This document shows positions 30,908 to 40,890 of a stretch of DNA of 64,000 bases, piece by piece. Position numbers and translations under genes: made by a program. The stretch comes from a virus, in the IMG/VR virus record IMGVR_UViG_3300027770_000032; one strand, given 5' to 3'. Every line of letters starts with the position of its first letter. Positions within the stretch are counted from its first letter, which is position 1. The notes under the pieces are model-generated. The model was given only the letters and a program-made list of their open reading frames with translations, was not told the DNA's origin and made no database searches.

Positions 30908-31576
30908 ATGGCGCGTAAGAAAGTGTCGGAACCTATGGTGGCTCCGTTGGAAGAATTTCATTATTTTGTAACTCCCATCTATATTATTAAACAGCCACGG
31001 TTTCTTGATGTAGTTAAGACAATAGCATTGGACAGCATCAAGCAAGTTCACGGCAAAGCTAAGCCGGACAAAATACATCCTCTCCTCATGTCGGGCAATA
31101 TGTTGGAAGACACTCGCATCGAGGAGTTTGCCAACTTTGTAGGCGAGACGGCGTGGAATATCTTAGCTAGCCAAGGCTACGCTATGGAGAATTTTAGCAC
31201 TGGGTTTACTGAAATGTGGTGCCAAGAGCATTATCAAACGGCATCGATGGATTACCACGCGCATGCCGGAGGTAGCTTCCTTGTTGGCTTCTATTTCCTT
31301 GACACGCCGGAAGGATGCTCACCCGCTGTCATTCACGATCCTCGTCCAGGACGCGTCATGCTCGACTTGCCGCAAATTAATCCTAGCCAAGCAACGCTTG
31401 CAAGCACGGCGATTAACTTTATTCCAGAACCGGGGATGTTGATGTTCACACCGGCATGGTTAGCGCACAGCTTCAATCGCAATACGTCGAAGGACCCGTT
31501 CCGCTTCGTTCACTTTAACCTCGCCGTGCAGCCAAAGGCACCAGTCGCGTGTCTTGCGCCTGCAGAGGTGATCTGA
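30908..31576 (+). CDS. Putative 2OG-Fe(II) oxygenase (TIGR02466-like)
   Basis: HAH facial motif, HDPRP, PEPGMLMFTPAWLAHS, RFVHFNL. Confidence 0.8.
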   Translation: MARKKVSEPMVAPLEEFHYFVTPIYIIKQPRFLDVVKTIALDSIKQVHGKAKPDKIHPLLMSGNMLEDTRIEEFANFVGETAWNILASQGYAMENFSTGFTEMWCQEHYQTASMDYHAHAGGSFLVGFYFLDTPEGCSPAVIHDPRPGRVMLDLPQINPSQATLASTAINFIPEPGMLMFTPAWLAHSFNRNTSKDPFRFVHFNLAVQPKAPVACLAPAEVI

Positions 31577-31878: not shown

Positions 31879-34596
31879 ATGGCTACACCAAATAACTTTC
31901 GCGTTAAATCAGGCCTGAATGTAGGCACTACAATAGCAGGCGGTAATACAACTATTACTGGCTTTGCGAATGTCAGCACCAGCGTCAACTCAGCTTCACT
32001 CACTGTAGGTTCTAGCTTCATTGCCAACACGAGCAAAGTGGCTATCGGTACGGCAGTCGGACTTGAAGCGAACGGTGGTATCGGTACTGCCGGTCAAGTA
32101 TTACACTCAAATGGTACTTCGATATACTGGGCAGTTGATGACAATGCCGGAGGAACAGTCACATCTGTCGCAACTGCCAACGGTCTTTCTGGTGGTCCAA
32201 TTACATCAACTGGTACACTCGGTGTAACGACCGGTTCGACACTTACGGTGAATACTGCCGGCATTCATGTGAACTCAGCCTTATCAATCACATCTCTTAC
32301 GTTAGCAGGTGCAGCTTCTGGTGTTACGACACTTGCTGCCGGTAATACAACAATTACAGGTTTTGCAAACGTAACAGGTAACGTACAAATAAGCGCGATC
32401 AATGCAACCTCATTTGGCGCTACGCTTACTTCAAATTCAACGACCGCTATTTTAACTCTTGGCAACTCTTCTGTTACCGCAACAATGAATAGTTCAACCT
32501 TTAGTGGCACTGCAAACAACTCTACGAATCTTGACGGGTCTTCATTAGCTACAGTACAAGGTCAAATTACTGGTAACGCTACTACTGCATATACAAACTC
32601 AGTATCCTACACTGACACAAAGATCGGTACAGCGAATACTGCGATGGTTGCAAATGCCGGTGCAGCATATACCAATGCGACTATTTTTGCTGCCAATGCT
32701 TCGAATGCAAACAATGGCACATTAGCTTTTGCTCGATTACCTTCATTGTTTGTTGGAACGACTACGATTCAGTCAACAAGTGCTGCACAAGCCGTAACAG
32801 GTATTACGACGCTTGCCGCAGGTAACACGACGATTACTGGTGATATTACCGTTTCTGGTAACCTTACTATCAATGGTACTACAACCAATATAAATTCTAC
32901 AAATCTTGTTGTAGAAGATAAAAACATTGTGCTTGCTGACGTAACTACTCCGACCGATGTGACTGCCGACGGTGGTGGTATTACTCTGAAAGGTGCCACC
33001 GATAAGACATTTAACTGGGTTGATGCAACTGACAGCTGGACTTCTTCTGAACATATCGATCTTGCGGCCGGTAAAGTCTATAAGATCGGTACTACTACTA
33101 TTGCTAACTCTACAGCTTTAGGTACTGGAATTCTTGCATCGTCTCTTACCTCTGTAGGCACTTTAAGTTCTCTTACGCTCGGTGGCGCAGTATCAGGCGT
33201 CACAACACTCGCTGCCGGTAATACTACTATTACTGGCTTTGCGAATGCTTCAGTTTCGGTCAACTCAGCATTGTTAACTGTGGGTACAGCCTTTGTTGCT
33301 AATACGATTGGAGCTTTTCACACTGGTACTGTTAACGCTGCATCATTTACAACCACTGGTTTAACAATTAATACTACTGCTATTGTTCCTACATCAAACT
33401 CATCAGGGCAGACATTAGGTAATACCACTTCTAGGTTTGTTTTGTCCGCCAACTCAATTGACACAACAGGCGCAATTAACATCGCCGCCGGGCAAGTGTT
33501 AAAATTCAATAATGATGTTGGTATTTCTCGCTCGCAAGCTGCAGTATTGTCTATCGGCAACGGAACTCAAAATGATTCTACTGGAACAATAAGTCTTACT
33601 GGTGGTTTATTTCAAGGCGCAGTCAATGCAGCTTCACATACTGTCGGTTCTAGCTTCATTGCCAACTCAACGGGCATTACATCAACTGGCTTTGCAAACG
33701 TATCGACTACATTACAAGTGGGAACGAATACAGCCACCTTTGGTACCGCTGTTTATATTATAGCAAGTGGTAACACCGGTGTTGGTACAAGTTCTCCGGC
33801 ATCACTGTTTCATGTCAAACGCGGCAGCAATGCTACCGAAAACTACCCTACTAATACTTGGGCGGCGCGCATTATCAATGCCACCGATGCCAATACTGAA
33901 AATGGCCTTGTTGTCGGCAATCGCTGGGCTGCGGTTGAGTCAACAATTTTTGAAGCCGGGTCGATTTATGGCGGAGGCTCTGCTTGGGCATCTTATTATA
34001 AAGTCACAGGCATTGGAACGCACACTTGGGGCACGGGCTCAACTGGCACTGAAGCTATGCGTATCGATACTAACGGTAACACTGGTATTGGTAACACCGC
34101 ACCGGCCCATAAATTATCGATAGGTGGCACGCTCGCAGCCGGTAACACTACGATCACGGGTTTTGCTAACGTATCGACCACTTTACAAGTAGGAGGCATT
34201 TCTACTCTTGCCGCAAACTTAGTAATGGCCAACAATTTTATTACTCGCCCAGTGTTAGCAGGTTACTCTGAACACGAAGTGTCAAACACGGCAGTTACTG
34301 GTACATTTACACTAGACTTTTCGACTGCAAACTTCTTCGATCTAATACTTACTGGAAACACGACAATCTCACCATCTGGAATTCCAGCGAATACAAGAAT
34401 GGTTTCTGCTACACTTGCAGTCAAACAAGATGCGACCGGAGGAAGAACCATTACATGGCCGACAGGTACTAAATACGCGGGTGCTGTCTCGCCTCCTGCG
34501 ACAACGACTGCAAATGCTGTCGATATCTGGTCGATTATGACGTACGATGCGGGCAATACTTACATTGTTTCATTGTCAGTAAAGAATGCGAGCTAA
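31879..34596 (+). CDS. Modular tail fibre protein
   Basis: N-terminal NFRVKSGL, repeated [11 protein letters not shown] units, modules shared with the 23727 fibre, GNTGIGxTxP repeats, C-terminal QDATGGRTITWP...AVDIWSIMTYDAG domain. Confidence 0.8.
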   Translation: MATPNNFRVKSGLNVGTTIAGGNTTITGFANVSTSVNSASLTVGSSFIANTSKVAIGTAVGLEANGGIGTAGQVLHSNGTSIYWAVDDNAGGTVTSVATANGLSGGPITSTGTLGVTTGSTLTVNTAGIHVNSALSITSLTLAGAASGVTTLAAGNTTITGFANVTGNVQISAINATSFGATLTSNSTTAILTLGNSSVTATMNSSTFSGTANNSTNLDGSSLATVQGQITGNATTAYTNSVSYTDTKIGTANTAMVANAGAAYTNATIFAANASNANNGTLAFARLPSLFVGTTTIQSTSAAQAVTGITTLAAGNTTITGDITVSGNLTINGTTTNINSTNLVVEDKNIVLADVTTPTDVTADGGGITLKGATDKTFNWVDATDSWTSSEHIDLAAGKVYKIGTTTIANSTALGTGILASSLTSVGTLSSLTLGGAVSGVTTLAAGNTTITGFANASVSVNSALLTVGTAFVANTIGAFHTGTVNAASFTTTGLTINTTAIVPTSNSSGQTLGNTTSRFVLSANSIDTTGAINIAAGQVLKFNNDVGISRSQAAVLSIGNGTQNDSTGTISLTGGLFQGAVNAASHTVGSSFIANSTGITSTGFANVSTTLQVGTNTATFGTAVYIIASGNTGVGTSSPASLFHVKRGSNATENYPTNTWAARIINATDANTENGLVVGNRWAAVESTIFEAGSIYGGGSAWASYYKVTGIGTHTWGTGSTGTEAMRIDTNGNTGIGNTAPAHKLSIGGTLAAGNTTITGFANVSTTLQVGGISTLAANLVMANNFITRPVLAGYSEHEVSNTAVTGTFTLDFSTANFFDLILTGNTTISPSGIPANTRMVSATLAVKQDATGGRTITWPTGTKYAGAVSPPATTTANAVDIWSIMTYDAGNTYIVSLSVKNAS

Positions 34597-34599
34597 GAT

Positions 34600-35922
34600 A
34601 TGGGTATTGGTGGAGGTTCTAAATTTACACTCGAAAAAACTTGGCGCGCAAGTGGTGTCGGCACGACTACGTTTAATGCACCAGGCAATATCGCAATCCC
34701 TTACGGTAGAAATGTAATCAACGTTGCTGGTGCAGGTGGCACCGGAACAGCAGCCATTTCTGGTAACTTAAACTATAATCCACTTGTACCAGGAACATTA
34801 AACTATAATCCACTTGTTCCAGGAACATTAAACTACAATCCACTCGTTCCTGGTACTCTTAACTATAACCCACTCGTTCCTGGTAACTTGAACTATAATC
34901 CACTTGTTCCTGGAACATTAAACTATAATCCTCTAGTTCCAGGCAATCTGAACTATAATCCGCTTGTTCCCGGAAACCTAAACTATAATCCACTTGTTCC
35001 TGGAACTGCCAACTATAATGCTGTCGTTCCGGGCACTTCTAACTATAATGCTGTCGTTCCGGGCACTTCTAACTATAATGCTGTCGTTCCAGGCAATTCT
35101 AACTTTAACCCAATTGTTCCAGGAACTGCGAGCACATATAATCCAGAGAGCGCAGGAACAGCGAGCTCATATAATGCTCCAAGCCCAGGAACAATTGCTG
35201 GATATACTCCCTATAAAGCCAAAGCGGGTACCGGAGGCAATCCGTTCTATAATGCTCCAACTGCTGGTAATCTGAATTATAACTCTCCTTCTCCAGGTAC
35301 AGTTGCAAGTTATAATTCTCCTTCAGGCGGCACATTTGCTGGTACTAATCCATCAAGTGGAGGTACATTTGCTGGTACTAATCCATCAAGTGGAGGTACA
35401 TTTGCTGGTACTAATCCATCAAGCGGCGGTACTTTATCTTCATACAATGCTCCAACTGGCCAAACATCGACCGGAACATATAATGCTCCAACTGGAAAAA
35501 CATCGACCGGAACATATAATGCTCCAACTGGTCAAACATCAACAGCAACATACAATGCTCCAACTGGCCAAACATCGACCGGAACATATAATGCTCCAAC
35601 TGGAAAAACATCAACAGGCACTTATAATGCACCAACGGGTCAAACCTCAACAGGCACTTATAATGCACCAACGGGTCAAACCTCGACCGGAACATATAAC
35701 GCTCCGACTGGACAAACGTCGTCAACATATAATCCAAATACTCCGGCAGTTGCCGGTACCTCATCATCAGCGCTCGGCGTGACAGCTCCCGGATCGGCGA
35801 CCGGAGGAACTCCAGCAACACCGGTAGGTCAAACACTTGTTAGCTATTATACATATCCAGATAACGCAACATATCCTGTGACAGTGGCTCCTGGGGGTAA
35901 TATAACTATAGTAGTATCGTAA
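34600..35922 (+). CDS. Pro/Tyr/Asn-rich tandem repeat protein, putative fibre-tip adhesin
   Basis: Non-repetitive N-terminus (TTTFNAPGNIAIPYG...VAGAGGTG) and C-terminus (SSALGVTAPG...YPVTVAPGGNITIV) flank about 320 aa of repeats; starts 3 nt after the fibre stop. Confidence 0.7.
   Translation: MGIGGGSKFTLEKTWRASGVGTTTFNAPGNIAIPYGRNVINVAGAGGTGTAAISGNLNYNPLVPGTLNYNPLVPGTLNYNPLVPGTLNYNPLVPGNLNYNPLVPGTLNYNPLVPGNLNYNPLVPGNLNYNPLVPGTANYNAVVPGTSNYNAVVPGTSNYNAVVPGNSNFNPIVPGTASTYNPESAGTASSYNAPSPGTIAGYTPYKAKAGTGGNPFYNAPTAGNLNYNSPSPGTVASYNSPSGGTFAGTNPSSGGTFAGTNPSSGGTFAGTNPSSGGTLSSYNAPTGQTSTGTYNAPTGKTSTGTYNAPTGQTSTATYNAPTGQTSTGTYNAPTGKTSTGTYNAPTGQTSTGTYNAPTGQTSTGTYNAPTGQTSSTYNPNTPAVAGTSSSALGVTAPGSATGGTPATPVGQTLVSYYTYPDNATYPVTVAPGGNITIVVS
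34762..35121 (+). repeat. 30-bp tandem repeats: 8x G(N/T)LNYNPLVP, 3x GT(A/S)NYNAVVP, 1x GNSNFNPIVP
   Basis: Counted from the translation and DNA. Confidence 0.95.
35326..35727 (+). repeat. 3x 33-bp (GGTFAGTNPSS) followed by 8x 36-bp (YNAPTG(Q/K)TSTGT) tandem repeats
   Basis: Counted from the translation and DNA; the last unit is one codon shorter. Confidence 0.95.
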
Positions 35923-39473: not shown

Positions 39474-40067
39474 ATGTTATACGAAGAAATAAAACTTAAA
39501 AATCCTGGGGTATTAAAAACAAAACTACCTAATGATATATTCAGGCAGATAAAAGCTGATGCACTTGCAGATGCTGAAAAAAAGATCCCATATAATGAAC
39601 ATTTAGTAGGTCAAATTGCTGGTGAATATCAAATCAAAGTAAATCCATATTTTGAAAAAATTATTAATAATATGTGGATTGAATATAGAGAAAGATTTGA
39701 CTATCATCTTTCAAACCAATATTATATTTCTGATACAGCATGGATAAATGTCCAGAAAAAACATGAATTCAATCCCGTGCATCATCATGAAGGTGCAGCA
39801 TCTTGGGTTATATGGTTACAGATCCCGTATGATTTAGAGGAAGAATTGAACACTTTTAAAAATGCAAAAAGTCGTGATACTTCTTTATTTTATTTTTATT
39901 ATAATTCGTTTATAGGAACACAAGAAAATTCCCCGCTGTATATTGATAAACAATGGGAAGGAACTATGATTATGTTTCCGGCGATGCTGAAGCATAGCGT
40001 ATATCCATTTTATACTACAGACTCTCCAAGAATTTCAATATCTGGGAACATTGAAGTCCATGCATGA
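39474..40067 (+). CDS. Putative 2OG-Fe(II) oxygenase (HxH type)
   Basis: WINVQKKHEFNPVHHH, SWVIWLQIP, MFPAMLKHSVYPF, RISISGN; ATG 39474 chosen over the upstream GTG. Confidence 0.8.
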   Translation: MLYEEIKLKNPGVLKTKLPNDIFRQIKADALADAEKKIPYNEHLVGQIAGEYQIKVNPYFEKIINNMWIEYRERFDYHLSNQYYISDTAWINVQKKHEFNPVHHHEGAASWVIWLQIPYDLEEELNTFKNAKSRDTSLFYFYYNSFIGTQENSPLYIDKQWEGTMIMFPAMLKHSVYPFYTTDSPRISISGNIEVHA

Positions 40068-40890
40068 TATTCAATTTTGGAAAGAATTATGTCCAAATCT
40101 TACGATTGCAGAAATAGATCGTTGGGCAACACCGTCAGAAATTGCTATAGAAGATGTCAAAGATAAAATAGTTAACGACGGATATTTCCATATACCATTT
40201 GACTCATGGAATCTGCCTTTCGATGAAATGACTCGATGCATTGAAAAGTTAAAAGATCTTGATATGCAACCAGTATGGTGTTTTATATACGACGAGTTTT
40301 GGTTATTGACGGTCAAGATCGATGCACACATCAAATCTATTCTTGGTGAAAATTATTATCGGCTTCCTGAAGTGTGGGCATGGCATATCGATCCATCGAA
40401 AGAAGAAAGAGGCTGGAAGATACATCGAGAAGGCGGATATTATAGTACATTTGATGACGGTCTTCCAAAAACTTTAACTATCTGGATTCCTTTAACAGAT
40501 GCAACTTCAGAGAATGGTTGCATGTGTGTCGTGCCAATAGCAAACGATCCTAACTTTTATAATACAGACGAATCGTATTATGCAAATTGGCAAGAAGATT
40601 TTTATGATAATAGTAAAAAAATACTTGAAGCCAAATCAGGAGATGTGCTTGGATGGCATCCGCAGATATTACATTGGGGGAAAAAATCTACTAATAAAAA
40701 TGCAAATCCGCGAATATCAATATCCATGGAGTTTGTTTCGAATCGTATATTAGAACTAAATGATACTGCGTGTTTTTATGACAAAGAAGAACATCCATGG
40801 TTAGATCCATTTTATATTCCAGATCTGACTAAAAAGACAGAACTCATAAATAAGCTAGTATCACGATATCAACATATGTGGGAAAAGTAA
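40060..40890 (+). CDS. PhyH-family 2OG-Fe(II) dioxygenase
   Basis: WKIHRE, TIWIPLTDATSENGCMCVVP, GDVLGW...ILHWG, RISISMEF. Confidence 0.8.
   Translation: MHDIQFWKELCPNLTIAEIDRWATPSEIAIEDVKDKIVNDGYFHIPFDSWNLPFDEMTRCIEKLKDLDMQPVWCFIYDEFWLLTVKIDAHIKSILGENYYRLPEVWAWHIDPSKEERGWKIHREGGYYSTFDDGLPKTLTIWIPLTDATSENGCMCVVPIANDPNFYNTDESYYANWQEDFYDNSKKILEAKSGDVLGWHPQILHWGKKSTNKNANPRISISMEFVSNRILELNDTACFYDKEEHPWLDPFYIPDLTKKTELINKLVSRYQHMWEK

Follow-up and report, generated by a model that had tools for sequence, protein, structure and literature searches.

The stretch of DNA analysed here (the window, 64,000 nt of the IMG/VR virus record IMGVR_UViG_3300027770_000032) carries a T4-like myovirus structural module, which encodes portal, major head protein, sheath and terminase as well as tail fibres and a baseplate wedge. 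Its portal is only ~54% identical to the portals of cyanomyoviruses, Pelagibacter phage Mosig and Stenotrophomonas phage DLP6. Within this module, we studied the open reading frame (ORF) at 34600-35922 of the plus strand, which encodes a protein of 440 residues (P0001) made for the most part of short tandem repeats, and whose start at 34600 is separated by 3 nt from the stop of a tail-fibre-like gene (34596). The repeats were segmented by a regular-expression (regex) parse, and Tandem Repeats Finder was used as an independent check (Table 1). A preliminary description of this DNA had noticed a mirror-like order of repeat copies, 8-3-core-3-8, between positions 34762 and 35727, and these limits turned out to enclose exactly the two arms returned by both methods, one leading from the N-terminal segment to a central turn and the other leading back to the C-terminal segment.

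Table 1. Segments of the P0001 gene and adjacent genes (window coordinates)
Feature	Position	Strand	Evidence
Tail-fibre-like gene, 905 aa; probable docking partner of P0001	31879..34596	+	PHROG tail-fibre matches on residues 771-901
Base domain, N-terminal half (residues 1-54), motif F.LEKTW...TFN.PGN..IPYG.....V.G.GG.G	34600..34761	+	kept in all homologues
Outgoing arm, block 1: 8 x 10-aa G[NT]LNYNPLVP (residues 55-134)	34762..35001	+	regex parse, Tandem Repeats Finder
Outgoing arm, block 2: 3 x 10-aa GT[AS]NYNAVVP	35002..35091	+	regex parse
Outgoing arm, three unique FN/YN units of 10, 11 and 11 aa	35092..35187	+	regex parse, knob count
Turn/tip, 20 aa, GTIAGY...GGNPF (GTIAGYTPYKAKAGTGGNPF); sole long knob-free gap in mid-protein	35188..35247	+	regex parse, knob count
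Returning arm, tip-proximal unique YN units	35248..35325	+	regex parse, knob count
Returning arm, 3 x 11-aa GGTFAGTNPSS (35326-35424) and a degenerate fourth GG unit (GGTLSS-YN)	35326..35442	+	regex parse, Tandem Repeats Finder
Returning arm, 8 x YNAPTG[QK]TSTGT, seven of 12 aa and a last copy of 11 aa	35443..35727	+	regex parse, Tandem Repeats Finder
Base domain, C-terminal half (residues 377-440) and stop codon, motif ALGV..PG...SYY.YPD..TYPV.V..GG...I	35728..35922	+	kept in all homologues
Downstream cassette: 2-oxoglutarate/Fe(II) (2OG-Fe(II)) oxygenase PF13640, DUF6065 and paralogue, N-acetylglucosamine (GlcNAc) transferase PF11397	35947..39036	+	Pfam

The periods detected in the gene were 30 bp (12.0 copies), 33 bp (3.1 copies, 97% matches) and 36 bp (7.8 copies). 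Each unit of both arms contains what we call a knob, either an aromatic residue followed by asparagine ([YF]N) or the sequence x-Asn-Pro, and a count of these knobs gives 14 units on either side of a single 26-residue gap devoid of them. Two readings of the middle blocks are possible, 3-3|3-3 and 3-3|2-4, according to the block to which the transitional GG unit is assigned. The arms are rich in threonine (16%), asparagine (15%), glycine (14%) and proline (13%), and there is no histidine or cysteine anywhere in the protein. A DNA palindrome as the origin of the symmetry was rejected because the gene contains no inverted repeat; for the same reason, the mirror order has to be regarded as a property of the protein. 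Inside the blocks, the DNA repeats are 80-97% identical, and both arms have a super-period of three units, of 90 bp on the left (34771-35079) and 108 bp on the right (35441-35717), a pattern that suggests expansion in three-unit blocks on both sides. As this in-block identity and the super-period point to recent, block-wise expansion, selection for matched arms would have to act continually.

Searches with P0001 produced no match in Pfam, PHROGs or NCBIfam, none in the PDB by profile or sequence, and only low-complexity matches in 50,697 GenBank phage records (megablast and tblastn). Relatives came from metagenomic sequences, with 66 in a 90%-clustered set and 34 IMG/VR loci. The family as a whole comprises 238 clusters at 50% identity (E<=1e-3), 177 of them at E<=1e-10, and all are metagenomic; in the window, the ORF of P0001 is the sole match to a hidden Markov model of the N-terminal domain. 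No account of the family was found in the databases and literature searched, and it seems to constitute an undescribed, purely metagenomic family tied to the tail fibres of T4-like myophages. In all homologues the ~50 N-terminal and ~55 C-terminal residues are conserved, and the middle is hypervariable and composed of knob units of 8-12 residues, with 3 to 28 units per arm. In many clades this middle additionally carries one to three aromatic, cysteine-containing cores that are not repetitive.

P0001 by itself is insufficient to judge whether its mirror symmetry goes beyond chance, and it is the comparison with its homologues that indicates so. In the nearest relative, L001 (72% identity), the blocks are ordered 7-5-3 | 3-5-7, with 15 units in each arm, compared to 8-3-3 | 2(3)-4(3)-8 and 14 units in each arm of P0001. 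From the base outward, L001 has 7 LNYN units, 5 ANYN units and 3 others, and its returning arm, also read from the base, has 7 TGQxSTGxYN units, 5 units of the GG type and 3 of the PG type. As the block sizes differ between the two proteins yet match from arm to arm within each of them, both arms must have changed together.

Automated contrasts of the arms between nearest neighbours proved too noisy, since the tip was sometimes mis-detected (for example in L026) and proteins with several modules did not fit the rule, so parses specific to each clade were used instead. The most detailed pattern was obtained in clade A (IMG/VR loci L005-L028), which includes 11 distinct proteins of 394-685 residues from many metagenomes, one of them found identical on 11 contigs. 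The usual units in this clade are 10-11-mers of the ..PG/..AG type on the left and 10-mers on the right, and each arm also has a minority unit, which on the left has an inserted aromatic residue ("IIFP", "IIYP") and on the right is one residue shorter ("VANGP", 9 residues). When positions are counted from the base, the left "..FP" and right "VANGP" units coincide in each of the nine proteins that have them (9/9), and the two proteins that lack one type of minority unit also lack the other. The six patterns observed (9,10; 5,6,14,16; 5,6,13,15,17,19; 5,6,13,15,17; 5,6,10,15,17; and 5,6,7,11,15,17) would each be matched under random placement with a probability of 5e-3 to 4e-6, and none of them matches when the arms are compared in direct N-to-C order. 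At register 0, the left FP feature and the length of the right unit share 0.67 bit of mutual information, a value that falls to 0.08 or less when the arms are shifted by 1-3 units. Moreover, a second feature, independent of the first, the choice of Y or F in the left knob with respect to (A/Q)N(Y/F) on the right, also peaks at the antiparallel register (0.42 vs <=0.12).

Equivalent patterns were found in other parts of the family. Both arms of L002 use the same type of unit, and, read from the base, they show one and the same succession of 11- and 8-residue units over a length of 17 units, an agreement that is lost if the arms are compared in direct order. In clade B (P0003-P0013), with unit counts of 6/6, 7/7 and 7/7, alternating Y- and S-type units on the left stand opposite alternating units of 11 and 10 residues on the right at the same levels, and where P0013 has its unit types exchanged at levels 5 and 6, the other arm mirrors the exchange. 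For a clade of 19 proteins with multiple modules, arm lengths were taken as the distance between sequence anchors instead of from unit counts; here, the inner arms around the central cysteine core measure 38-68 residues on one side and 62-95 on the other, with a correlation of r=0.996, and show no correlation with the length of the core or with the outer arms. The members of this clade (P0015-P0058) contain three cores without repeats, of which two carry conserved cysteine pairs (VCEP...CP.P and CPSP...C), in an architecture a0-core1-a1-core2-a2-core3-a3 that resembles a stalk with side domains, in which a1 pairs with a2; core1 may lie opposite core3. Finally, a crude count of arm units across the family gave a left-right correlation of r=0.66 when 141 proteins were included and of r=0.80 when 79 cluster representatives were used, and the arms differ by at most one unit in 59% of the representatives vs 39% in permutations (10,000 permutations, p<1e-4). 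The left/right covariation of copy numbers in homologues, proposed in the preliminary description as a check of its model, is thus apparent from L001 to the multi-module clade, and the unit variants placed at equal distance from the base extend it to a finer grain and support its inference that paired arms are under selection. It had also held that uncorrelated copy numbers would refute such a model; the correlation holds within clades and over the whole family, with the qualification that a few homologues have unequal arms.

As a rule the two arms are heterotypic, in that 10-mers of the form "PGNxNYNPxx" face 11-mers of the form "GGNFAGxNPxx", and in P0076, P0094 and L022 these unit types are found on swapped sides. 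This exchange argues for a partnership between left and right instead of two autonomous arrays. Furthermore, a shorter unit faces a shorter partner, as seen in the pairing of 8 with 8 residues, or of 10 with 9 in place of the usual 11 with 10, which suggests that the path length between consecutive rungs must match. An extended ladder or ribbon would fit these data somewhat better than a solenoid of fixed pitch, and a face-to-face pair of meander sheets could be an alternative form of the stalk. Covariation of this kind, seen in five separate parts of the family, may be likened to the compensatory changes that preserve an RNA stem, transferred to a protein.

With regard to the turn, that of P0001 reads YTPYKAKAG. 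A Lys-aromatic-Gly motif (K[FY]G) is present at the turn of L001 and in the 10 clade A tips that were read (L004-L028, one of them with KYD), often accompanied by GYTP. Being better conserved than the arms, the turn may have a structural role or be a site for binding or modification.

The structure of P0001 was predicted with AlphaFold2 from an alignment of 46 family members. Residues ~20-55 and ~380-440 were modelled with predicted local distance difference test (pLDDT) values of 90-97 and 87-97, respectively, and once the low-confidence parts were trimmed, VIA-align matched both terminal segments together to single beta-sandwich/jelly-roll domains (80-95 residues, Z up to 5.7). These results support a base formed by one small beta-sandwich that is built from the two termini of the protein, in agreement with the base of N- and C-termini put forward in the preliminary description. 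As both termini share one domain, the chain has to end where it began, and a fold-back topology is thereby forced. Wide fold searches with VIA-align, together with Foldseek against the PDB and the ESM Atlas, yielded only generic beta-sandwich/jelly-roll matches (Z<=5.7, E>=0.4, template modelling (TM) score <=0.30), so these similarities appear to be generic, with no specific relationship to any known protein. The glycine-rich domain of phage fibres Gly_rich_2 (PF21722), considered as a candidate for the base, found no match in Pfam and a single weak one in the ESM Atlas, with a TM score of 0.22 over 47 residues. In a homologue of 178 residues (P0072), the base was again predicted with a pLDDT above 90 and the arms at 43-63; at this low confidence, DSSP assigned bridges at residues 50, 53, 59, 63, 67-69 and 73 and at residues 97, 101-104, 108, 112, 119 and 122, whose positions sum to ~171, as in an antiparallel ladder. 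A three-copy prediction of the 247-residue homologue P0004 scored 0.00 and was given no weight either way.

The genetic context was compared in 14 loci that contain a homologue. In 12 of them the gene just upstream shares sequence with the 905-residue fibre of the window (the exceptions are L022 and L032). These upstream genes encode 122-1283 residues and most have in common with the fibre only its last ~130 residues, at 55-95% identity, and the homologue starts 0-4 nt past the stop of the gene that shares this sequence. The corresponding C-terminal module of the fibre in the window (34201-34596) has no match in Pfam, and its conservation suggests that the base domain may dock there. On the other side, the PF13640 oxygenase, which resembles prolyl hydroxylases, and the first DUF6065 gene stand beside the homologue in 13 of the 14 loci, both being absent from L002; they lie upstream of the homologue in L032, and are separated from it by two unrelated ORFs in L034. 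The DUF6065 paralogue was present in 12/14 loci and the PF11397 GlcNAc transferase in 10/14. Further oxygenases of the 2OG-Fe(II)/PhyH type (PF13759, PF05721) flank the fibre region at 30908-31576 and 40051-40890, which makes the structural module of the window unusually rich in these enzymes. In protists, a PF13640 and PF11397 enzyme pair makes hydroxyproline-GlcNAc on Skp1, and here such an oxygenase-transferase pair adjoins a proline-rich repeat protein with many x-Pro-Gly sites. By analogy, hydroxylation and glycosylation of the arms by the adjacent enzymes is plausible.

All these data are best accounted for by a fold-back fibrous protein with paired antiparallel arms, acting as a tunable stalk associated with the tail fibres of T4-like phages, a reading to which we assign a probability of about 0.8. 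According to this model, the first ~55 and the last ~60 residues would fold jointly into the beta-sandwich base, from which the chain would exit through ~14 units of 10-11 residues, reverse in a loop of 20 residues and return through ~14 different units of 10-12 residues. Counted from the base, each outgoing unit would face the returning unit of the same number, antiparallel and in register, with rungs formed by the aromatic-Asn knobs ([YF]N) of both arms. Slippage or recombination would readily alter the number of tandem copies, only matching changes in the two arms would persist, and in this way the stalk would stay paired while ranging from 3 to 28 rungs over the family. The base would dock on the upstream fibre protein at its conserved C-terminal domain, the stalk would present its tip (in other clades, a cysteine-containing globular core) to the host surface, and the adjacent enzymes would possibly hydroxylate and glycosylate the stalk. 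As hypervariable middles are typical of host-facing parts, a distal role as a fibre or adhesin module of tunable length, to which the position of the gene also points, has in our opinion somewhat better than even odds. It is a little short of an even bet that P0001 represents a new kind of fibre, in which aromatic-Asn knobs join two different repeat arms of a single chain, antiparallel and one rung after another, with no known fold relative, with its length set by compensatory changes in copy number and perhaps with a need for the hydroxylase and the GlcNAc transferase for stability. Collagen and extensins depend on hydroxyproline.

Several observations weigh against the fold-back stalk. The arms of P0001 were predicted with a pLDDT of ~35, that is, with no confident three-dimensional model, and the contact between rungs is deduced from covariation between arms modelled at this low confidence. 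Partner units differ in length (10 vs 12 residues in P0001), so that pairing as a plain beta-ribbon is impossible. The sequences within a clade are related to each other, and independent co-changes are consequently fewer than the proteins counted. Both the presence of P0001 in the virion and its binding to a receptor are predictions. Finally, unequal arms were found in P0011 (3/8), P0019 (4/7), P0009 (7/5) and P0025 (about 11/14). The first three are singletons on contigs of 2-6 kb, and collapse of near-identical repeats during assembly is a plausible cause of their inequality. In any case, P0011 and P0019 both carry three additional GGNYANTNP units adjoining the base, and because they share the same units the asymmetry may be real, as a tolerated overhang.

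Among the alternatives, pairing of the arms between subunits has a substantial, though minor, chance of being correct. The protein would then form a trimer or another oligomer in which each outgoing arm meets the returning arms of adjacent chains, giving a shaft of several strands comparable to the T4 gp37 needle with its six, and the same mirror covariation would be expected. Most tail fibres are trimers and the P0001 gene follows a fibre gene, a two-stranded monomer of 14-28 rungs seems mechanically weak, and low confidence in the arms of an AlphaFold2 monomer is frequent when partners are missing. No finding speaks against this arrangement; the base is confidently predicted as a monomeric fold from the two termini of one chain, and the return of the chain is thereby already forced. 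The preliminary description had proposed an antiparallel stalk of two strands whose length can be tuned; the pairing is supported by the covariation and the tuning by the 3 to 28 units per arm of the homologues, and instead of two strands the stalk could have six, in a trimer. A different interpretation of the arms is that they form two independent repeat structures, such as a narrow solenoid or sheet, that are equal only in their span from base to tip and have no contacts between units. The differences in sequence and unit length between the arms would be compatible with it, and a pentapeptide reading of the left arm of P0001 is feasible; tblastn also gave weak matches (26% identity) to a "pentapeptide repeats containing protein". 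However, the Pfam pentapeptide models match none of 46 members at E<=10, nor P0001 at E<=1, and an independent fold would not account for covariation that proceeds unit by unit in exact register, to the point that a change of one residue on the left is met by the deletion of one residue on the right at the same level, nor for knob residues that covary only at the antiparallel register. We therefore consider independent arms quite improbable.

Even more remote, in our view, is a disordered spacer rich in proline, threonine and asparagine, possibly heavily glycosylated in the manner of extensins or mucins, the symmetry of which would be inherited or accidental. The low-complexity composition and the low AlphaFold2 confidence could be taken in its favour, as could the weak Pfam matches of some family members to Extensin_1 and Pro-rich and the adjacent hydroxylase and GlcNAc transferase genes, but a spacer of this kind gives no reason for mirrored patterns that vary among relatives and yet stay matched. 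In addition, the invariant aromatic-Asn pair of each unit suggests a structural role, and modification can coexist with a paired structure. As for function, the main alternative to a fibre or adhesin is a factor or chaperone for fibre assembly, like T4 gp38 or lambda Tfa, whose repeats would template or measure the fibre. The place of the gene right after a fibre gene is typical of T4 g38 and lambda tfa. Nevertheless, P0001 matches no chaperone family in Pfam or PHROG, the combination of a variable middle with a conserved base corresponds rather to a host-facing pattern, and the length of the fibre (479-1283 residues) does not obviously track the number of arm units, which leaves a chaperone as an unlikely candidate.

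The host range of phages is set by the distal ends of their tail fibres, and to our knowledge these parts are almost unknown in the abundant T4-like phages of aquatic bacteria. The present analysis identifies a large family (238 clusters) that no database names, and provides, from sequence comparison alone, a map at residue register of the putative contacts between repeats, along with natural variants from 3+3 to 28+28 units. If the fold-back stalk is indeed a self-pairing ladder of repeats, it would constitute a new fibrous fold with natural length tuning through compensatory repeat changes, and could serve as a modular spacer in engineered receptor-binding proteins of phages. Moreover, the conserved link to a hydroxylase and a GlcNAc transferase offers a testable case of modification of a phage virion protein.

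We compared P0001 with known systems that share some of its traits. A collagen-like repeat was discarded, because instead of a glycine at every third residue, GNLNYNPLVP and YNAPTGQTSTGT have one or two per 10-12 residues. Beta-solenoid and pentapeptide proteins resemble P0001 in their short tandem repeats with recurrent asparagine and aromatic or aliphatic residues, which form asparagine ladders and aromatic stacks. In contrast to P0001, solenoids wind one way and need no mirrored second arm, and the units of the P0001 family vary between 8 and 12 residues within a single arm; the pentapeptide-repeat solenoid was not supported, as its Pfam profiles gave no match. The likeness to SMC and Rad50 is one of topology only, with a head made from both termini, antiparallel arms of matched length and a distant apex. 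Their arms are alpha-helical coiled coils within ATPases, whereas those of P0001 are repeats of 8-12 residues rich in proline, asparagine, glycine and threonine that cannot be helical, and there is no homology between them.

A closer parallel in gene organization is given by the gp38 adhesins of the T2/T6/S16 type, which attach to the end of the fibre, have short conserved glycine-containing motifs between variable segments and determine host range. Like P0001, these adhesins are encoded by a separate gene right after the distal fibre gene and alternate conserved and variable segments. Unlike P0001, in which a clasp is made from both termini, gp38 attaches through an N-terminal domain and ends in a polyglycine-II sandwich, and it does not have two arms of matched copy number. 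No sign of membership of P0001 in the gp38 family was found as a match in Pfam, PHROG, NCBIfam or PDB, or as a GenBank phage homologue by tblastn.

In its working principle, the closest known system appears to be the receptor-binding tip of T4 gp37, a needle with seven iron sites along its length (Bartual et al. 2010, PDB 2XGF; PMC6957217). No match between P0001 and the solved gp37 tips was obtained by PDB profile, Foldseek or VIA-align, the fold comparison being limited to the base. The needle lies within the fibre protein and is an obligate trimer, whereas P0001 is a separate product of 440 residues whose termini form a domain of their own. The rungs of the needle are HxH-iron sites, in contrast to the [YF]N or N[YF]N motif in the histidine-free P0001, and the needle lacks the copy-variable tandem repeats of which the arms of P0001 are made. 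Nevertheless, with P0001 taken as modelled here, both systems have a distal position in the fibre, a chain that goes out and back, a thin rod with regular rungs and a tip facing the host. The out-and-back chain with adjacent termini, a trait of the gp37 type, was found in P0001 as well, as indicated by the AlphaFold2 base together with the mirror covariation of the arms.

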